Positions 4,073-11,349 are shown, counted from the stretch's first letter. The stretch: 13,240 nt of DNA from Candidatus Sigynarchaeum calidifontis (GCA_030587475.2 JAUQYZ020000028.1:1-13240); one strand, 5' to 3'. Notes: generated from the letters alone by a model not told the origin. A program made the numbers and translations.

Positions 4073-4244
4073 TGCATTCCAGAAACCAATAATCGACCTA
4101 CGCTGGTTGCTTCTTGATTTTACTTGAACCGACGAGCATTCATGCTTATATCCTTGAATTCGAAGTTAGAATATAGAGTCATAAGTTCTACATCATGACT
4201 ATCGATCATCAAAACATGGTATACAAACGAGAAGGAGAATGAAC

Positions 4245-4892
4245 ATGTCGAATCAACCCCAAGACACGGAAACCCTTTTCACGAAGAAAATGCCCCTGGC
4301 AATCGTTATCATGGTATTCGCCGTGGTCAACATCGTGGTTCTCGGGATCATGATCGGTGCCCACCATGGTTACCCACTTCCCCTCTTCTATGCATACAAC
4401 GTTCCCTTGATTGTTTATGCCGTGACTCACCTGGTGTTCACGATCATTGGAAAGAACAAGGGGAAAGAAAACCAGATAATGGCCTTCGTCTTCGGGATCA
4501 TCACGCTTGGCCTCTGTGCAATCATGGTCATCGATCGCCTTACGAAAATCGCATCCATGATAGACGAAATCTACGATGCCGTGTTGTTGATCCCCTCCTG
4601 GCCAATATACGTCGTCGACGTGATAATGCGCAGCGCGTCGCTCGCATTCATTGTCTTGATAACCGTGTTCTCGATCTTGTCGATCGTGAACAGCGTCAAC
4701 ATCATCAAGGAGAACGTGCCATCAAAATCAGCGACGACAAGCACTGCCGGTGTTGCTGCGCCCGTGCAACCAGCAACGACCACGCCACCACCTGCATCCG
4801 CGGGCGCGAGGGCGCAGTTCTGCTCGTCATGTGGTGCTGCGCTTGATGCGAACGCGGTGTTTTGCAACAAGTGTGGCGCGAAGGTCCAGTAG
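4245..4892 (+). CDS. Membrane protein (about 4 TM) with Thr/Ala/Pro-rich linker and C-terminal zinc ribbon
   Basis: Four hydrophobic segments, the low-complexity linker SATTSTAGVAAPVQPATTTPPPAS, then FCSSCG-x8-FCNKCG. AGGAG at 4233-4237 favours ATG 4245 over 4239. Confidence 0.85.
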   Translation: MSNQPQDTETLFTKKMPLAIVIMVFAVVNIVVLGIMIGAHHGYPLPLFYAYNVPLIVYAVTHLVFTIIGKNKGKENQIMAFVFGIITLGLCAIMVIDRLTKIASMIDEIYDAVLLIPSWPIYVVDVIMRSASLAFIVLITVFSILSIVNSVNIIKENVPSKSATTSTAGVAAPVQPATTTPPPASAGARAQFCSSCGAALDANAVFCNKCGAKVQ

Positions 4893-4971: not shown

Positions 4972-5331
4972 TCATTCGTCCTGGTGGCGATCCACGGCCG
5001 CACGTGCCTTGCGGTGGATGACTTCCTTCATCTTTTGCTCGAGATCTTGCTCGATCTGGAAAAGGGCAGCGAATTCCTGGCCAAAGGTCGCGTGTGACTT
5101 GAGCTGGCTCTTGATCGCGGCGAAGTATTGCTCCAGCATCGAGACTTCCCACTCCTTCATGGTCGAAAACTTCGTACCGACGTGCTTGCACGTGATCCAG
5201 ATCAAGTATTCGAGCAGGTACTTGCGATCGTCTCCAAACTCCTCGAACGCGTCGAGCAGCTGGACGGGGATGCGATTGTTGTACTGCCCGCGCTTTAGCT
5301 TGAAGGATAACGAATCCTCGGGATCTGTCAT
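4972..5331 (-). CDS. Hypothetical, predicted alpha-helical protein (119 aa)
   Basis: Fills the gap between neighbouring genes, has host-like codon usage and a charged amphipathic helical composition. No motif recognised. Confidence 0.75.
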   Translation of the reverse strand: MTDPEDSLSFKLKRGQYNNRIPVQLLDAFEEFGDDRKYLLEYLIWITCKHVGTKFSTMKEWEVSMLEQYFAAIKSQLKSHATFGQEFAALFQIEQDLEQKMKEVIHRKARAAVDRHQDE

Positions 5332-5437
5332 GGTATCTCGGTGTTATACTGATTTGCAAGGTACATATCTTCTTGTATCACCGGGAACATACGATGGGAT
5401 GGTGGTGGCGGTTCAGCGCTCGTGCCACGACCGCCAA

Positions 5438-6223
5438 TCATCCTTTCAGAATGGAGATTTCCTTCAAGACGAAGTAGTCCTCGCCGGGCGCGTTGATCGT
5501 GATGCCGCTCACGAGGGCATACCTGTTCTCGCACTTGTTCTTGGACAAGAAGGCATCGAGCATTCTCTTGAGCGATTTCTTGACGAGATCGTGGTTGATC
5601 TTTGCCAGCTCGATTACTTGCTTGTTCTCATCCTCGTTCTTGATGATGATGTCCAGCTCGCTTTTATACTGCTTAGCGAGCTCGCAAAACACGATCTGGC
5701 GCGCGATGTCGAGCGGGTCATCCAGATCGAGCTCGAGACTGCTACAAGTTTTTGCTTTTTTCAATGCATTCAAGAAACCCATCATCGCCCCGCAGCAAGG
5801 GGTCTCGTGTTCTTGACCCGGGCGCACGACATTCCCGTATGTCGGCCTGGTACCAGGCACGATGCCCACGTGCGGGCTGGCAAAAAAGATCACGTCGCCC
5901 TCGATGCAAGCCCCCTTAACGTGCCTTTCCGGAGCGTGATGCGATGCGGCGGCGATCCCGGTAACCCCACCGATCGGATATGCTGCCAGCGTACCCATGT
6001 GGAAGTCTCCATCGTACGCGCTCGCCATCGCACCCTCGATCGTCCGTCGCTCGCGTAACCGGTTGATCTCGTCAGGGCACACCGAGAACACGACGCGGCT
6101 ACTCCCGGCAGTGAAGCCCTTGGCACCAAGATCCGACTTGACCTGCTTGATGAGACCATCAACGTCGTGCACCTTTCCCCAGTCGCCGAAATCTGCTTGC
6201 AGCAGCGCGATGACACGATCCAT
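5438..6223 (-). CDS. LCIB/LCIC-family (theta-class, beta-like fold) carbonic anhydrase
   Basis: Family motifs in the expected order: GFT...SVC49PD51E52IN, F.MG.LA.YP.GGVTG..A..H95H96AP, IFFASPH118VG, G.V.RPGQ, CC144GA and C-terminal YALVSGI.I. The Cys/His/Cys Zn triad (C49, H118, C144) is intact. Recognised from memory of the Chlamydomonas LCIB and diatom theta-CA consensus. Confidence 0.88.
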   Translation of the reverse strand: MDRVIALLQADFGDWGKVHDVDGLIKQVKSDLGAKGFTAGSSRVVFSVCPDEINRLRERRTIEGAMASAYDGDFHMGTLAAYPIGGVTGIAAASHHAPERHVKGACIEGDVIFFASPHVGIVPGTRPTYGNVVRPGQEHETPCCGAMMGFLNALKKAKTCSSLELDLDDPLDIARQIVFCELAKQYKSELDIIIKNEDENKQVIELAKINHDLVKKSLKRMLDAFLSKNKCENRYALVSGITINAPGEDYFVLKEISILKG

Positions 6224-6257
6224 AAAACACTGCCTCTCGCGTTGTTAAGCCGAGCAC

Positions 6258-6297
6258 ACGTTTAAAACTTGCGGCGGTCTTTCTGCAGCTTTTTATG
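6258..6297. promoter_or_regulatory. Divergent promoter region (CA / dapL) with TATA-like boxes
   Basis: TTTAAAA at 6261-6267 (TTTTAAA on -, about 38 bp upstream of the CA ATG). TTTTTATG at 6290-6297, about 25 bp upstream of the dapL ATG at 6320, which fits a leaderless mRNA. Confidence 0.55.
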
Positions 6298-6319: not shown

Positions 6320-7558
6320 ATGGCTCGAGTGAATGACAATTACTTGAAGCTGCAGAGCAGGTATCTCTTCTCCGAGATAGGCAAGCGCACGAAGGACTTC
6401 GCGGAGAAGCATCCAAAGGCTCCGATCATCAAGCTCGGCATTGGTGACACGACTCGGCCCCTCCCGCCCGCGATCATCAAGGCGTTCCACGATGCAGTGG
6501 ACGAGATGGCCGCGACCGAGACATACAAGGGATACGGGCCTGAACAAGGTTATGATTTTCTCCGAGAGGCGATCGCGAAAAACGATTTCGTGGCGAGGGG
6601 CGCGGACATCACGCCCGACGAGATATTCATCTCCGACGGTTCAAAATGCGACACGGGTAACATCCTCGAGATCTTCGGCCCCAACAAGATAGCCATCAGC
6701 GACCCGTCCTACCCGGTCTATGTCGACACGAACGTGATGGCCGGGAACACGGGGCCGATCATGGAAAACGGTCAATACGAGGGGCTCGTGTACTTGCCTT
6801 GCAAGCCGGATGATGATTGGTCTCCCCCACTCCCGAAAGAACACGTGGACTTGATCTACCTGGTGTCGCCGAACAACCCGACGGGCACCGCCATCCGCAA
6901 GCAACAGCTCGAAGCTTGGGTGAACTACGCGCTGGACAACAAGGCAATCATCTTTTTCGATGCCGCGTACGAGCGTTATGTCACGGACAAGGACGTGCCC
7001 CGGTCGATCTACGAGATCAAGGGGGCAAGAGAATGCGCGATAGAGTTTCGCAGCTTCTCGAAGACCGCGGGGTTCACGGGGGTGCGCTGCGCGTTCGCGG
7101 TCATCCCACGGTCCTTGAAAGGCTACGACGGCAAGGGCAATCCCGTCGCCATTCACGACCTTTGGAATCGCCGGCACACGACCAAGTTCAACGGCGTTTC
7201 CTATCCCGTCCAGAAAGCAGCTGCCGCGGTGTACTCGGCCGATGGTGCAAGGCAAGTCGACGAGATCATTGCCTATTACAAGCAAAACGCGGCGCTGATC
7301 CGCGATAGCTTCGCCAAGGCCGGGTTCGCTTGTTATGGGGGCGTCAACTCGCCATACGTCTGGATAAAGACCCCGGGCAAGCTCAGCTCGTGGGATTTCT
7401 TCGACGTCATGCTATCCAAGCTCAACATCGTGGGCACGCCAGGATCGGGGTTCGGCCCGAGCGGCGAGGGATATTTCCGCTTCACTGGTTTCAACACGCG
7501 AGAAAAAACGAAAGAGGCCGTCGACCGCATCGCCCAATTCAACTGGAGCGCTTTGTAG
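6320..7558 (+). CDS. dapL: LL-diaminopimelate aminotransferase
   Basis: DapL motifs [50 protein letters not shown]-lysine [25 protein letters not shown] and [18 protein letters not shown] 6320 is preferred over TTG 6308. Confidence 0.95.
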
Positions 7559-7630: not shown

Positions 7631-9385
7631 TCATGTAGCGGTCAAGGCCAGGAACCGCTCCATGTAATAGATGCAAACTTGATTGTAGAAGTTATTGTAG
7701 AAGATGTCGAACATGTGCCCAGCCCCGTTGAACGTTCCAAGGATGCAAGGTGCCCCGATTGCCACCATGCGTGCTTGAAACGCCTCTGCTTGGGCTATCG
7801 GGACGACCCCGTCCGCGGTCCCGTGGAAGCACAAGACCGGGGGGCTCGATGGCGAGACGAGCTCGATCGGGTTGAAGTGCCAGAACTCGGCCGCGGGCAC
7901 GCCGAACAACTCCTCCCCGCCAGCCAGGCCCATGAGATGGCTGATGTTTGTCGGCGCGTAAAACGCGATGATACCGCGGCAATCGAGCAACGAGGAAAAA
8001 TTGCCAGCAAAATAAGGCGCATCGTACGCGAGTCCTGCCACGAGCGCGAGGGTGGATCCCGAGCTGCGTCCCAGGAAATACGTGCGAGATAAATCGACAT
8101 GATACTCGTTCGCGTGCGCCTCGAGGAACCGCGTGAGGGTGGCGATCTCCACGATCATGTCCTTGATGGTGAACGTGCCCGCCGAGCCGTTGTAAAGGCC
8201 ATACTGCACGTCCACGACGATGAATCCTTGATCGGCCATGTACCGGCTCGTCGGCGGGACGTTCGATGGACCCTTGTCCCAGTAACGGAAGGAACCGGGA
8301 TGGAGGGCGATGATGACCGGCAGGAGCTTCGATGTCGCGGAGATGCCGGCCGGCCCGTACCAGTCGAATCGCAGCGTTTTTCCCTTGTCCTCCATGTACG
8401 GGATGTCGTGTCGCTCGTCGACGGCCGGGATGGGTATCGTGAGGATGATGTCCTTCAAGGCGACGGGCCTGTCCCTGAAACGGCTCGACGCGGACGCGGG
8501 GATGCTGGTTCTCCATGCAGTGCCGAACGTGCTCGCGAATTGCCGCTCTAGCGAGCCGATCGACGTGCTGGACGAGAAGAGGGGGATCGTGTTGAAAGCC
8601 GCGATGGCCGAGCTCGTGATGACCACGCTCAAGAGGAGCAAGCGATGCCGCTTGCTGCGCGTTCGCGGGACCTGCCTCGCGAGCAAGAAGATGACGGGCA
8701 CGATCAAGAACACGCCGAAAATCGACAAGTTACCTGCCAGCCAGTATTCGACGGACGGGCCGGCCGTCATGAAGATGAACGGGCCATAGACCGCGATCGC
8801 GAGCAGCAGCAGCATGACCCCGATGCTCGTGTTCTTGAGAAATTCCAGGACGTTCATCTTGCGTGCCGGCGCGGGATCGTCGGTGATGGGGCAGTCGAAC
8901 CGCCAGACAGGCGTGCTTCCCCCGTCCTCGCATCCATATTCTATGCCCATTCGGGTGGAAACGTAAGCAAGATACCCGCCGGCGATCGCAAACAAGTGGG
9001 TCGTGATGAACGTTGCGATGGCAATCGCATCGACAAGGAAATGAAGGGGGTTTTTCAAGTCCACGATGAACACGTTCACGGCGGTCACGAGCATGCTCGC
9101 GCCGATCGTCGCGCACGCGACGGCGAGGTACCTCGAGAAATGGGCATGGATCCGCTTGGCCAGTGCATTTCGCCGCCAGTTCAGGTTCGTCCACTTGATG
9201 ACGATGAACGCGAGGTTCAAGAGAGTCGTGCCGATGATGACATCCTCCACGAGCACGTCCAGCCAAAGGTCGAAAAGTACAAGCATTCCGGCGATGCCGA
9301 GGACGATCATGCACGTGTTACTCAAGATAATGAGGCCAGAAAGCACGTGCACGGCTTGCTTGTAGAACACGCGGTAGGCCACCAT
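7631..9385 (-). CDS. Polytopic membrane alpha/beta-hydrolase (HSL/family IV-like esterase domain), paralog 1
   Basis: About 7 N-terminal hydrophobic helices, oxyanion loop HPGS, nucleophile GRSSG, acid HGTADGVVP and base AGHMFD. Confidence 0.9.
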   Translation of the reverse strand: MVAYRVFYKQAVHVLSGLIILSNTCMIVLGIAGMLVLFDLWLDVLVEDVIIGTTLLNLAFIVIKWTNLNWRRNALAKRIHAHFSRYLAVACATIGASMLVTAVNVFIVDLKNPLHFLVDAIAIATFITTHLFAIAGGYLAYVSTRMGIEYGCEDGGSTPVWRFDCPITDDPAPARKMNVLEFLKNTSIGVMLLLLAIAVYGPFIFMTAGPSVEYWLAGNLSIFGVFLIVPVIFLLARQVPRTRSKRHRLLLLSVVITSSAIAAFNTIPLFSSSTSIGSLERQFASTFGTAWRTSIPASASSRFRDRPVALKDIILTIPIPAVDERHDIPYMEDKGKTLRFDWYGPAGISATSKLLPVIIALHPGSFRYWDKGPSNVPPTSRYMADQGFIVVDVQYGLYNGSAGTFTIKDMIVEIATLTRFLEAHANEYHVDLSRTYFLGRSSGSTLALVAGLAYDAPYFAGNFSSLLDCRGIIAFYAPTNISHLMGLAGGEELFGVPAAEFWHFNPIELVSPSSPPVLCFHGTADGVVPIAQAEAFQARMVAIGAPCILGTFNGAGHMFDIFYNNFYNQVCIYYMERFLALTAT

Positions 9386-9467: not shown

Positions 9468-11216
9468 CTATGCGGTGCAAAGCGCGAGGAACCGCTCCAT
9501 GTAGTAGATGCAAGCCTGGTTGTACGGGTAGTTGTAGAAGATGTCGAACGCGTGGCCCGCGCAGGGGAACTCGCCGATGATGCACTTCCCGCCGGAGGCC
9601 GCCATGGCTGCCTTGAGATCCCTTGAATGCACGGGTGGCACCAGCGTGTCCGAGAGTCCTTGAAAGCACAAGACGGGCGGGCTCGCGGGCGACACGAGAT
9701 CCACGGGATTGAAGTATGAAAATTGTGAATAGGGCACCCCGAAAAACGCGGTGCTCGAATTGTTAAAGAAAGAGAATCGCGTCAAGTTCGCCGGCGGGTA
9801 AAAGGGGATGAGGCCCACGCAGTCGAAGTCGACCGAAAAGTTTCCCGAGAAGTAAGGGTTGTCGTGCCCGAGGCCACAAACGAGGGCGAGGTGCGCCCCG
9901 GCACTCCGCCCGAGAAATACCGTTCTCGAAACATTCGCATGGAACCGGGCCGGGTTCCCGGCGATGAACCGCGTGAGATTGGCGATTTCCATTACCATGT
10001 CCTTGAGCGTGAAGGGAGAGGCGTCATCCTCGTTGTAGAGCCCGTATTGCACGTCGACGACGACGTGGCCGAGGCTGGCGATGTATTTCTGCGTTGGCAT
10101 GATGTTGTAGATGCCTTTATCGTACAATCGCCAGCTACCGCCGTGGATGGCGACGACGACGGGGAGCATGTTCGAAGTCCCGGAAGTGCCTTTTGGTGCA
10201 TACCAGTCGAACCGCAGCGTTTGTCCCTTGTGAACCATGTAGGGAACATCGATCTGCTGCTCCACGGGATCGAGCGGGAGCGTGTAGAAGAAATCATTGA
10301 ACACGACCGGCGCGCTGCGAAATGGACGGTAGGGACTGGGCGGGATGGTCGCTTGCCAGCTTGGCCCGTAGATGGAGGCAAATTGCGCGTCGAGCGAGCT
10401 GATGGTGGATTGGATTTGCACGACGGGGAGCGCGTTGAAAGCCACGAGGACGCAGCCAGCAGATATGATAGCAATGACGAGGGCCCGGTTCGCGCCTCCC
10501 CGGGCACGAGGCACATGGCGGGCGAGCATCAGCGTGCACGGTGGGAGTGCGACGAGTAGCAGCGCCGCCAGGTCTCCTGCAATGAACGAAGGCCAATCGG
10601 CACCGCCCGGGATGAAAATCGCGGGTGCCAGGATCGAGAGCACGAACACGACCAAGATGCAAGCCACGCCGATCGTCTTGAGAAACTTCTTGAAGCCGGG
10701 CTTGAATTCCCACGACGGGTCATCTCTGACAAGCTTCAAGGAAAGGATGATCTCGTCGCCGGCCCCGGTCTCGCCCCGCCCGGGCATGGTGATCGTGAAA
10801 AGCTTGAAACACGCGAGCATGGGGAAGAGATGGACAAGAACATTCAGCACCAGCGCGATAATGATGCAGGACAAGTAGAATATCGAGCCCAGGGAATAAC
10901 CGAGCATGCTCGCCAGTGTAACGAGCGTGTTCCCGAGGATCACGAGCCCGATGCCGACGAGATGCGCGGAAAACCACCACTGGATGCGCGAGGCTTGCTT
11001 ATTCTTCCGATGATTCAATAACACGTGCCCTACCACCGCGATAAACAGGTTAAGTGTAAATGTCGCGACGATGAGCACGTCAAGCAAGACTTCAAGCGTT
11101 GATCCGCTTGCATCGAGCAACGACCACGTGCCCGCAAGCATCACGAGGCCATTGCATGCCACGACCGGAACAGCGAGGCCACGAACCAATCGATGGATGG
11201 CATTCTGCATTGGCAT
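9468..11216 (-). CDS. Polytopic membrane alpha/beta-hydrolase (HSL/family IV-like esterase domain), paralog 2
   Basis: Same architecture as paralog 1: HGGSW, GRSAG, QGLSDTLVP and AGHAFD. ATG 11216 (or 11210) matches the N-terminal length of paralog 1 better than the track start at 11246. Confidence 0.9.
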   Translation of the reverse strand: MPMQNAIHRLVRGLAVPVVACNGLVMLAGTWSLLDASGSTLEVLLDVLIVATFTLNLFIAVVGHVLLNHRKNKQASRIQWWFSAHLVGIGLVILGNTLVTLASMLGYSLGSIFYLSCIIIALVLNVLVHLFPMLACFKLFTITMPGRGETGAGDEIILSLKLVRDDPSWEFKPGFKKFLKTIGVACILVVFVLSILAPAIFIPGGADWPSFIAGDLAALLLVALPPCTLMLARHVPRARGGANRALVIAIISAGCVLVAFNALPVVQIQSTISSLDAQFASIYGPSWQATIPPSPYRPFRSAPVVFNDFFYTLPLDPVEQQIDVPYMVHKGQTLRFDWYAPKGTSGTSNMLPVVVAIHGGSWRLYDKGIYNIMPTQKYIASLGHVVVDVQYGLYNEDDASPFTLKDMVMEIANLTRFIAGNPARFHANVSRTVFLGRSAGAHLALVCGLGHDNPYFSGNFSVDFDCVGLIPFYPPANLTRFSFFNNSSTAFFGVPYSQFSYFNPVDLVSPASPPVLCFQGLSDTLVPPVHSRDLKAAMAASGGKCIIGEFPCAGHAFDIFYNYPYNQACIYYMERFLALCTA

Positions 11217-11349
11217 GGTTGTTATGCTGCTTCCACCGATAATCAACTTGACGCCGCCTTGGAACGCAATCCGAACCTTGCATATCTGTCACGGGACCCA
11301 CGCGCGTCGTGAATTGCCCGCGTCGCATCATTTTTCGTTCCAAAACGGC

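Follow-up and report, generated by a model that had tools for sequence, protein, structure and literature searches.

An intact LCIB/theta-type carbonic anhydrase homologue from a separate branch of the family in Asgard archaea

The gene and its surroundings

The stretch of DNA analyzed here, referred to below as the window, is 13,240 nucleotides long and comes from the Asgard archaeon Candidatus Sigynarchaeum calidifontis (GCA_030587475.2 JAUQYZ020000028.1:1-13240). The coding sequence of a homologue of the LCIB/theta-type carbonic anhydrases (CAs) occupies positions 5438..6223 of its minus strand, as a single open reading frame (ORF) of 261 amino acids plus a TGA stop. In the minus-strand translation, the ATG start lies at 6223-6221 and the stop at 5440-5438; read on the plus strand, this interval is interrupted by a stop codon, and an overlapping plus-strand ORF at 5009-6058 has no match in Pfam. 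The encoded protein, P0001, is an intact member of the LCIB/theta-CA family, of a separate archaeal branch that has not been described before. It has a computed mass of 28.5 kDa and a pI of 6.2, and the proposal of a preliminary description of the window, that it is cytosolic and has neither a signal peptide nor a transmembrane segment, agrees with a peak Kyte-Doolittle hydropathy (over 19 residues) of 1.26 and a polar N-terminus devoid of hydrophobic stretches. P0001 thus looks like a soluble, cytosolic protein.

Two short minus-strand elements upstream of the gene are compatible with an archaeal promoter and a short leader. The first is a TATA-box-like TTTTAAA at 6261..6267, 38-44 nt 5' of the ATG, and the second is a purine run, GAGAGG, at 6233..6238, 9 nt 5' of the ATG, which may represent a Shine-Dalgarno sequence. 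Both sit in a 96-nt spacer that the LCIB gene shares with a divergent class I/II aminotransferase gene (6320..7558, plus strand), the anchor of the synteny considered below. On the other side of the LCIB gene, 107 nt downstream and on the same strand, there is an ORF of 119 amino acids (4972..5331, minus) with no Pfam match, followed by the gene of a 217-amino-acid protein (4239-4892, plus) in which a C-terminal zinc ribbon is the only recognized part. The products of these two flanking genes are also found beside the LCIB gene in a congeneric genome (62% and 53% identity, respectively), and are not found at the other Asgard loci.

The window also encodes an aldehyde dehydrogenase, an M24 peptidase, a Zn-dependent alcohol dehydrogenase (ADH), two hydrolases of the BD-FAE/S9 type, and DnaK. 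The two hydrolases (7631-9385 and 9468-11246, both minus) are tandem paralogues of approximately 590 amino acids each, with a C-terminal BD-FAE or prolyl-oligopeptidase-type domain, and no family was assigned to the N-terminal portion of either protein (approximately 340 amino acids).

Family, fold, and active site

The Pfam profile LCIB_C_CA (PF18599) matches P0001 with an E value of 1.4e-34 and 119.8 bits, for a cut-off of 25, and the alignment covers positions 4-219 of the 223 in the profile. This HMMER comparison bears out the LCIB/theta assignment made in the preliminary description, and all seven motifs listed there were recovered with the spacing typical of the family, that is, CPDE at residue 49, GVTG at 86, HHAP at 95, FFASPHVG at 113, RPGQ at 134, CCGA at 143, and YALVSG at 235. 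No other credible Pfam family was found for P0001, with PF00484 (Pro_CA), the family of the classical beta-CAs, being absent among the matches at E values of up to 1, and no NCBIfam model matches the protein. A six-frame search of the host genome with PF18599 returned the same LCIB match, as a single copy. When the sequences of the PDB were searched, the only real matches were chains of the LCIB family (E 3e-13 to 5e-10), namely 9w05/9vzj, PtLCIB4 (5b5y), 6kfs, CrLCIB (5k5w), and LCIC (5b5x). The entry 6kfs is presumably PtLCIB3, another LCIB-family structure from the diatom Phaeodactylum tricornutum.

The structural comparison points in the same direction. An AlphaFold2 model of P0001, based on an alignment of 26 Asgard sequences, reached a predicted local distance difference test (pLDDT) of 92 and a predicted TM score (pTM) of 0.91. 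The best structure in Foldseek was PtLCIB4 (E 3e-18, TM 0.76/0.82), followed by 6kfs, CrLCIB, LCIC, and then by the classical beta-CAs. In VIA-align, the model superposes on PtLCIB4 with a Z score of 27.1 and a root-mean-square deviation of 2.2 Å over 228 amino acids, and on the other LCIB structures with Z scores of 22-26, whereas the score drops sharply, to 10-12, for the ordinary beta-CAs. The model therefore contains the LCIB-type elaboration of the beta-CA fold, and it is practically certain that P0001 is a member of the LCIB/theta-CA family.

The residues at positions 49, 118, and 144 of P0001 are Cys, His, and Cys, and are the predicted ligands of the Zn ion. The codon of Cys49, in the C-P-D-E motif, lies at 6077..6079 (this and the following codons are all on the minus strand), and the residue aligns with the Cys that precedes S47 in PtLCIB4. 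His118, of the S-P-H-V-G motif (5870..5872), aligns with the His of H-V-G in PtLCIB4, and Cys144 (5792..5794) with the second Cys of its A-C-C-G. Three further residues are candidate components of the same site: Asp51 (6071..6073), two residues beyond the Zn Cys, which would correspond to the catalytic Asp of the beta-CAs, His96 (5936..5938), which corresponds to His88 of PtLCIB4, a residue replaced in the mutant of PDB entry 5b5z, and Arg134 (5822..5824), the conserved active-site Arg of R-P-G-Q. In the comparison with 5b5y, the chain index equals the numbering of the entry titles plus 15, an offset fixed by the titles that name S47R (5b60) and H88A (5b5z). With this offset, the HMMER alignment pairs C49/H118/C144 with Cys46/His102/Cys126 of PtLCIB4 and H96 with His88, the His of G-H-I-P-D. 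Cys46, His102, and Cys126 are reportedly the Zn ligands of PtLCIB4 (Jin et al. 2016), and these numbers agree with the chain-index offset.

The conservation of these residues was followed in two alignments, one of 26 Asgard homologues (A1), the other of P0001 with 30 diverse cluster representatives that are 21-32% identical to it (A2). The invariant columns of A1 include C49, D51, H96, H118, R134, and C144, and those of A2 are limited to C49, D51, F74, L79, G86, H96, H118, and C144, with R134 conserved at 90% or more. The whole invariant set of A2 is present in P0001, which thus keeps every residue that is kept throughout the family. Position 143 varies among the homologues (S, C, or A), which is why the invariant Cys144, rather than Cys143, is taken as the ligand. 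The intact Cys-His-Cys site claimed in the preliminary description is therefore upheld by both alignments and by the correspondence with PtLCIB4.

The closest structural counterparts of P0001, PtLCIB4 and PtLCIB3, belong to the same Pfam family, and share its fold, the Cys-His-Cys triad, the Asp, the His88 equivalent, and the Arg, as well as a single domain of approximately 250 amino acids, with P0001 being predicted to pair with a second copy of itself around an interfacial active site. The differences lie in the sequence identity, of only 26-28%, and in an archaeal clade marked by an insertion of some nine residues past HHxPD, a longer helical segment (at approximately 160-200), and a Pro instead of a Ser after the first Zn Cys. 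In addition, the host of P0001 is archaeal and non-photosynthetic, and P0001 has no targeting peptide and a CA activity that is only predicted.

Chlamydomonas LCIB and LCIC (5k5w and 5b5x) are also of the same family, with the same ligands and Z scores of 22-24, but are chloroplast proteins of approximately 450 amino acids, assembled with each other into a hetero-oligomer that surrounds the pyrenoid, and were inactive in vitro (PMC5876011). By contrast, P0001 is a bare domain that has no LCIC-like paralogue, given the one copy found in the search of its own genome. The classical beta-CAs (PF00484), which include the archaeal Cab, Can of Escherichia coli, and Nce103 of yeast, share the core fold, the Cys2-His Zn chemistry, and the adjacent Asp with P0001. 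They have a C-x-D-x-R motif and an HxxC motif, whereas P0001 has C-x-D-E-x-x-R, with the His and the second Cys some 26 residues apart. With this spacing and no PF00484 match, P0001 falls outside the classical beta-CAs, and resembles them in the fold alone.

With Zn included, a predicted homodimer of P0001 obtained an interaction prediction score from aligned errors (ipSAE) of 0.87 in three of three runs, whereas none of three controls exceeded 0.00, and had a contact agreement of at least 96% and a partner pLDDT of 91. The same mark is attained by 20 of 30 proteins whose solved structure is a pair of one chain, and by 1 of 23 whose solved structure is a single chain. The predicted interface involves residues 50-58, 71-79, 84-99, and 134-146, around the residues of the active site, and contains both His96 and Arg134. 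As LCIB dimers have already been solved and are present in the PDB, the score may only mirror this likeness, and does not count as independent proof. P0001 is thus a putative dimer, with its active site predicted at the interface between the subunits.

Host, distribution, and phylogeny

The window is the entire contig C229 of a metagenome-assembled genome (MAG) of 4.99 Mb, which is made up of 269 contigs and is 89% complete, with an estimated contamination of 5.2%. The GC content is 54% for the MAG and 56% for the contig. No archaeal or bacterial small-subunit rRNA was found in the MAG. It does encode the ribosomal protein S8e and true actins (436 and 265 bits), which together point to an Asgard archaeon as the host. 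The closest named homologue of P0001 belongs to Candidatus Sigynarchaeum springense (76% identity), followed by proteins of MAGs labelled Lokiarchaeota or Promethearchaeota (40-67%), so that the contig appears, as had been suspected at the outset, to be archaeal, of the Asgard group, and not bacterial. The Sigynarchaeota were described from hot-spring sediment, as a sister group of the Lokiarchaeota (preprint 10.1101/2021.04.02.438162).

The contamination estimate nevertheless raises the question of whether C229 may be a bacterial or algal contaminant misplaced in an Asgard bin, given that the contig is only 13 kb long, carries no universal archaeal marker, and has a tetranucleotide profile that ranks 156 of 175 in the bin, toward its periphery, within the spread of contigs of similar size. 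Some homologous NCBI records also bear bacterial names. Against this, the locus is repeated in a congeneric MAG from Zodletone (G001), obtained in a separate study, in which a 3.2-kb contig has the aminotransferase, LCIB, small ORF, zinc-ribbon, and ADH genes in the same order, with identities of 84%, 66%, 62%, 53%, and 90%, respectively. Three NCBI assemblies also contain an identical P0001, in an unchanged gene order, on longer contigs (30, 50, and 72 kb). Through these, C229 is linked at 99.9-100% identity to two other contigs of its bin, C27 and C89, the latter encoding a three-domain ATP-dependent DNA ligase of the Lig1 type. Elsewhere, homologues of the type found in the window (Loki-type) occur in 20 further genomes grouped in the same phylum on the basis of the GTDB, on contigs of up to 131 kb, beside Ras-family GTPases and the genes of the A and B subunits of an A-type ATPase. 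The record titled Deferrimicrobium also appears to be one of these genomes, G164, which is grouped in the window's class. Misbinning is thus highly improbable, and the LCIB gene is very probably archaeal in origin.

Several Loki-type LCIB genes are deposited under other names, such as Deferrimicrobium sp. (L038, DATKTP010000204.1), Nanopelagicaceae bacterium (L044, DATKTW010000013.1), Bathyarchaeota (L034, WJJB01000379.1), and Woesearchaeota (L030, JBJKRA010000116.1). The first of these apparently equals G164:C204, with which it shares the contig number and coordinates, and if so, the organism name given by the NCBI is wrong.

Among 400 Asgard genomes, PF18599 is present in 23, that is, 21 with Loki-type proteins and two with a second, Heimdall-type form. 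In the window's family, the domain was found in three of four genomes, counting that of the window, and in its sister family, f4, in 17 of 135, mainly in the genera g20 (5/6), g16 (5/7), and g11 (5/42). It also occurs in a single genome from a different order of this class. The Loki-type proteins of the 21 genomes are 41-66% identical to P0001.

The two Heimdall-type proteins come from distant Asgard genomes and match NCBI proteins labelled Heimdallarchaeota (P0199 and P0201). They share the family, the invariant residues, an Asgard host, and the annotation as hypothetical with P0001, but are only 24-26% identical to it (approximately 25%), are nearer to the Pfam consensus (189-201 bits, versus 120), and lack both the Loki-type insertions and Arg55. 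Their loci are L009:1435-2208 (G050) and L010:1441-2154 (G085).

A library of 1.84 billion cluster representatives contains 1394 clusters of the protein family at E values of 1e-3 or less, and 890 at 1e-10 or less. Beyond the Asgard clade, the named members include archaea labelled DPANN, a Bdellovibrionales MAG, and eukaryotes such as green algae (Mesostigma, Pedinophyceae, Chlorokybus), chlorarachniophytes, a diatom, a pelagophyte, and a diplonemid. Each named prokaryotic member is recorded as a "hypothetical protein", the fate that had been foreseen for this gene in standard annotation pipelines. The eukaryotic members are nearly all from photosynthetic lineages, and many of them have two or three LCIB domains in tandem, as in P0035 (EukProt Namystynia karyoxenos), P0070 (Pedinophyceae), and P0075 (Mesostigma). 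Given that Namystynia karyoxenos is the diplonemid, which we take to be non-photosynthetic, the eukaryotic distribution of LCIB may not be strictly algal.

The phylogeny was approached through a FastTree analysis of 212 domains and a quick IQ-TREE search of 90 domains under LG+C20+F+G4 with posterior mean site frequencies (PMSF). In FastTree, all the Loki-type sequences, together with eight unnamed metagenomic representatives, form one clade (support 98), which neighbours a protein labelled Woesearchaeota and a green-algal clade of two-domain proteins (81-87). In IQ-TREE, the Loki-type clade is formed by 31 sequences and one very long fragment labelled Nanoarchaeota, with a value of 98 in the Shimodaira-Hasegawa-like approximate likelihood ratio test (SH-aLRT), on a stem of approximately 1.0 substitution per site, and the backbone of the tree is collapsed. 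The two-domain clade of Mesostigma and the Pedinophyceae was discarded as a sister group, since this position is seen in FastTree only, probably as a long-branch effect, and is lost in the site-heterogeneous IQ-TREE analysis.

The Heimdall-type sequences stand apart from this clade in the trees, in a group with algal sequences that has only weak support (92 in IQ-TREE). Joining the Loki-type and Heimdall-type sequences in one clade costs 17 log-likelihood units in the approximately unbiased (AU) test (47 rows, LG+G4), with a p-AU of 0.23, by which a single origin of the two is not rejected, nor is it demonstrated. Within the Loki-type clade, the sequences of G002, from the window's family, and of G164, from the other order, nest among those of f4, so that the gene tree does not simply track taxonomy, a mismatch that could reflect transfer or paralogy within the Asgard archaea.

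The preliminary description had also proposed that the gene bears on the origin of the eukaryotic family, and this part of it found no support: the Loki-type clade stands alone on its long stem, and a specific tie to the eukaryotic sequences is unsupported because the backbone of the family is collapsed. An old presence of the gene in the Asgard archaea would be compatible with the same trees. The gene does not, for this reason, inform eukaryogenesis at present.

Function and biological meaning

The preferred reading of P0001, to which a probability of roughly 0.65 is given, is that of an LCIB-type Zn carbonic anhydrase that works as a dimer in the cytosol and is native to a Sigyn/Loki-lineage Asgard archaeon. 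Its family, fold, residues, and host follow from the data above, whereas its catalysis and physiological role are proposed by analogy. PtLCIB3 and PtLCIB4 are reported to be constitutively active (PMC9614477), and on the model of these diatom enzymes, the Zn ion would be held by Cys49, His118, and Cys144, and a Zn-bound water or hydroxide, positioned by Asp51, would attack CO2 in a pocket completed by His96 and Arg134, both supplied at the dimer interface. P0001 would, in this way, interconvert CO2 and HCO3-.

The likeliest role of such an enzyme would be to keep inorganic carbon equilibrated, in a general way, in an anaerobe in which CO2 is both released and consumed. The release side is suggested by the amino-acid and peptide catabolism genes that neighbour P0001 in the window, and the consumption side by the carbon monoxide dehydrogenase/acetyl-CoA synthase (CODH/ACS), the CdhC component of which is encoded in the genome. 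The preliminary description had suggested, as examples, that the enzyme serves carboxylases or Wood-Ljungdahl/fermentative metabolism. The first of these roles is weakened, as no biotin-carboxylase domain was detected in the genome (89% complete), and the second is compatible with the presence of CdhC, from which the supply or removal of CO2 around the Wood-Ljungdahl pathway and decarboxylation would appear likelier than the feeding of a biotin carboxylase.

A number of observations weigh against the carbonic anhydrase reading, in addition to this lack of a biotin-carboxylase domain. The LCIB gene is patchy, being present in 20 of the 154 genomes of the window's order, and the tetranucleotide profile of its contig is somewhat outlying, as noted above. 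The insertions specific to the Loki-type proteins may bear on the active-site cleft. The genomic context lends no functional support, given that no neighbour is conserved beyond the genus: the clustering of the ORFs around 29 homologous loci revealed no partner gene common beyond single genera, and the neighbours in the window are shared only with the congener. The gene thus stands alone, and is not part of a conserved operon. The displacement of a classical beta-CA by LCIB was also considered and rejected, since the two show no complementarity across the order: of the 20 genomes with LCIB, 11 also have PF00484, and of the 134 without it, 84 do (these genomes being related to one another). Finally, no CA activity was seen in vitro for LCIB and LCIC of Chlamydomonas, which do not differ from P0001 in fold or ligands (PMC5876011), so that intact residues are no guarantee of catalysis.

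As for the classical family itself, the genus g16 has LCIB in five of seven genomes and PF00484 in none of the seven. The only PF00484 protein of the window's host, at G000:C101:15307-15723 (L050:1084-2052, minus), has 322 amino acids, and scores approximately 50 bits. It keeps the H-A-G-C motif, but has C-T-S-P in place of C-x-D-x-R, with the loss of the Asp-Arg dyad, and ends in a tail of approximately 130 amino acids, rich in Lys and Glu. Most of the PF00484 matches in the order fall in open frames of around 300 amino acids.

The inactivity of the Chlamydomonas proteins also lies behind an alternative in which P0001, for all its LCIB fold and metal site, is catalytically silent or conditional, and may act instead in the binding or sensing of CO2/HCO3-, or in regulation. 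Two other observations are in line with it: LCIB diverges more quickly than the genes beside it (the congeners are 66% identical here, versus 84-90% in the aminotransferase and ADH), and in one Loki genus, the homologue is co-directional within a chemotaxis cluster. All the family-invariant residues, among them the catalytic Asp and the counterpart of His88, are nevertheless kept under strong conservation across Asgard homologues that are 41-76% identical. The residue that follows the first Zn Cys is a Pro in P0001, in contrast with the Arg of the S47R mutant of PtLCIB4 (5b60). Chlamydomonas LCIB presumably also has an Arg in this position. The chemotaxis context, which is confined to one genus and absent from the window, counts as a single event. 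A silent or sensory P0001 is, on balance, unlikely.

The chemotaxis cluster in question belongs to genus g16, and was found in the Promethearchaeota MAGs BC1, BC3, and TEKIR_8 (L031:1141-12482, L035:2189-12544, and L036:2085-12716, respectively). The LCIB homologue is preceded by CheB and a CheR-CheD fusion, and is followed by a protein of approximately 500 amino acids without a family, a methyl-accepting chemotaxis protein, a 271-amino-acid protein, also without a family, CheW, and a CheY-like receiver. This arrangement might hint at a taxis linked to CO2 or bicarbonate. At another locus (L030:2755-5907), the LCIB homologue comes directly after the genes of the A and B subunits of an A-type ATPase, on the same strand, with a gap of 81 nt.

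A broader interpretation would see the Loki-type proteins as old theta-CAs that were kept vertically in the Asgard archaea and that, with the Heimdall-type form, mark this group as having given rise to, or received early on, the LCIB family to which the algal CO2-concentrating mechanism later turned. Instead or in addition, some members would act as CO2/bicarbonate sensors in chemotaxis. All this can only be regarded as a long shot.

The beta-CA fold gave rise to the COSase of Thiobacillus and the CS2 hydrolase of Acidianus. These precedents, from sulfur-rich habitats, offer a further alternative, that P0001 hydrolyses an analogue of CO2, such as carbonyl sulfide (COS) or carbon disulfide (CS2), rather than CO2 itself. 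The clade-specific insertions near the active site and the origin of the closest named relative, in hot-spring sediment (preprint 10.1101/2021.04.02.438162), would fit such a shift in substrate. This alternative is purely an analogy, and is quite improbable, given that P0001 has no sequence or structural match to the COS or CS2 hydrolases above the level of the generic beta-CAs, and that there are no sulfur-metabolism genes nearby.

In the literature library searched, no paper was found that pairs LCIB with the Asgard archaea, and the papers that join LCIB, archaea, and carbonic anhydrase bring in the archaea for no class other than beta and gamma. The theta-CAs are listed in one review under diatoms and green algae (PMC7215798). 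A survey of microbial CAs from 2026 confines the class largely to diatoms and protozoa (PMC13098186). Precomputed Pfam matches are already attached to all the homologues of P0001, and the existing model detects the protein at once, so that it represents a distinct archaeal subfamily of an already known family.

What emerges is an intact and conserved archaeal branch of LCIB that has gone wholly unannotated. In one Asgard order, approximately 13% of the genomes have the Loki-type form, and genomes labelled Heimdallarchaeota have a second one. Some Asgard genera, such as g16, carry LCIB without a classical beta-CA. The Loki-type proteins are compact, single-domain enzymes that would be useful for biochemistry, and represent a third candidate type of CA for the archaea, beside the beta (Cab) and gamma (Cam) classes.

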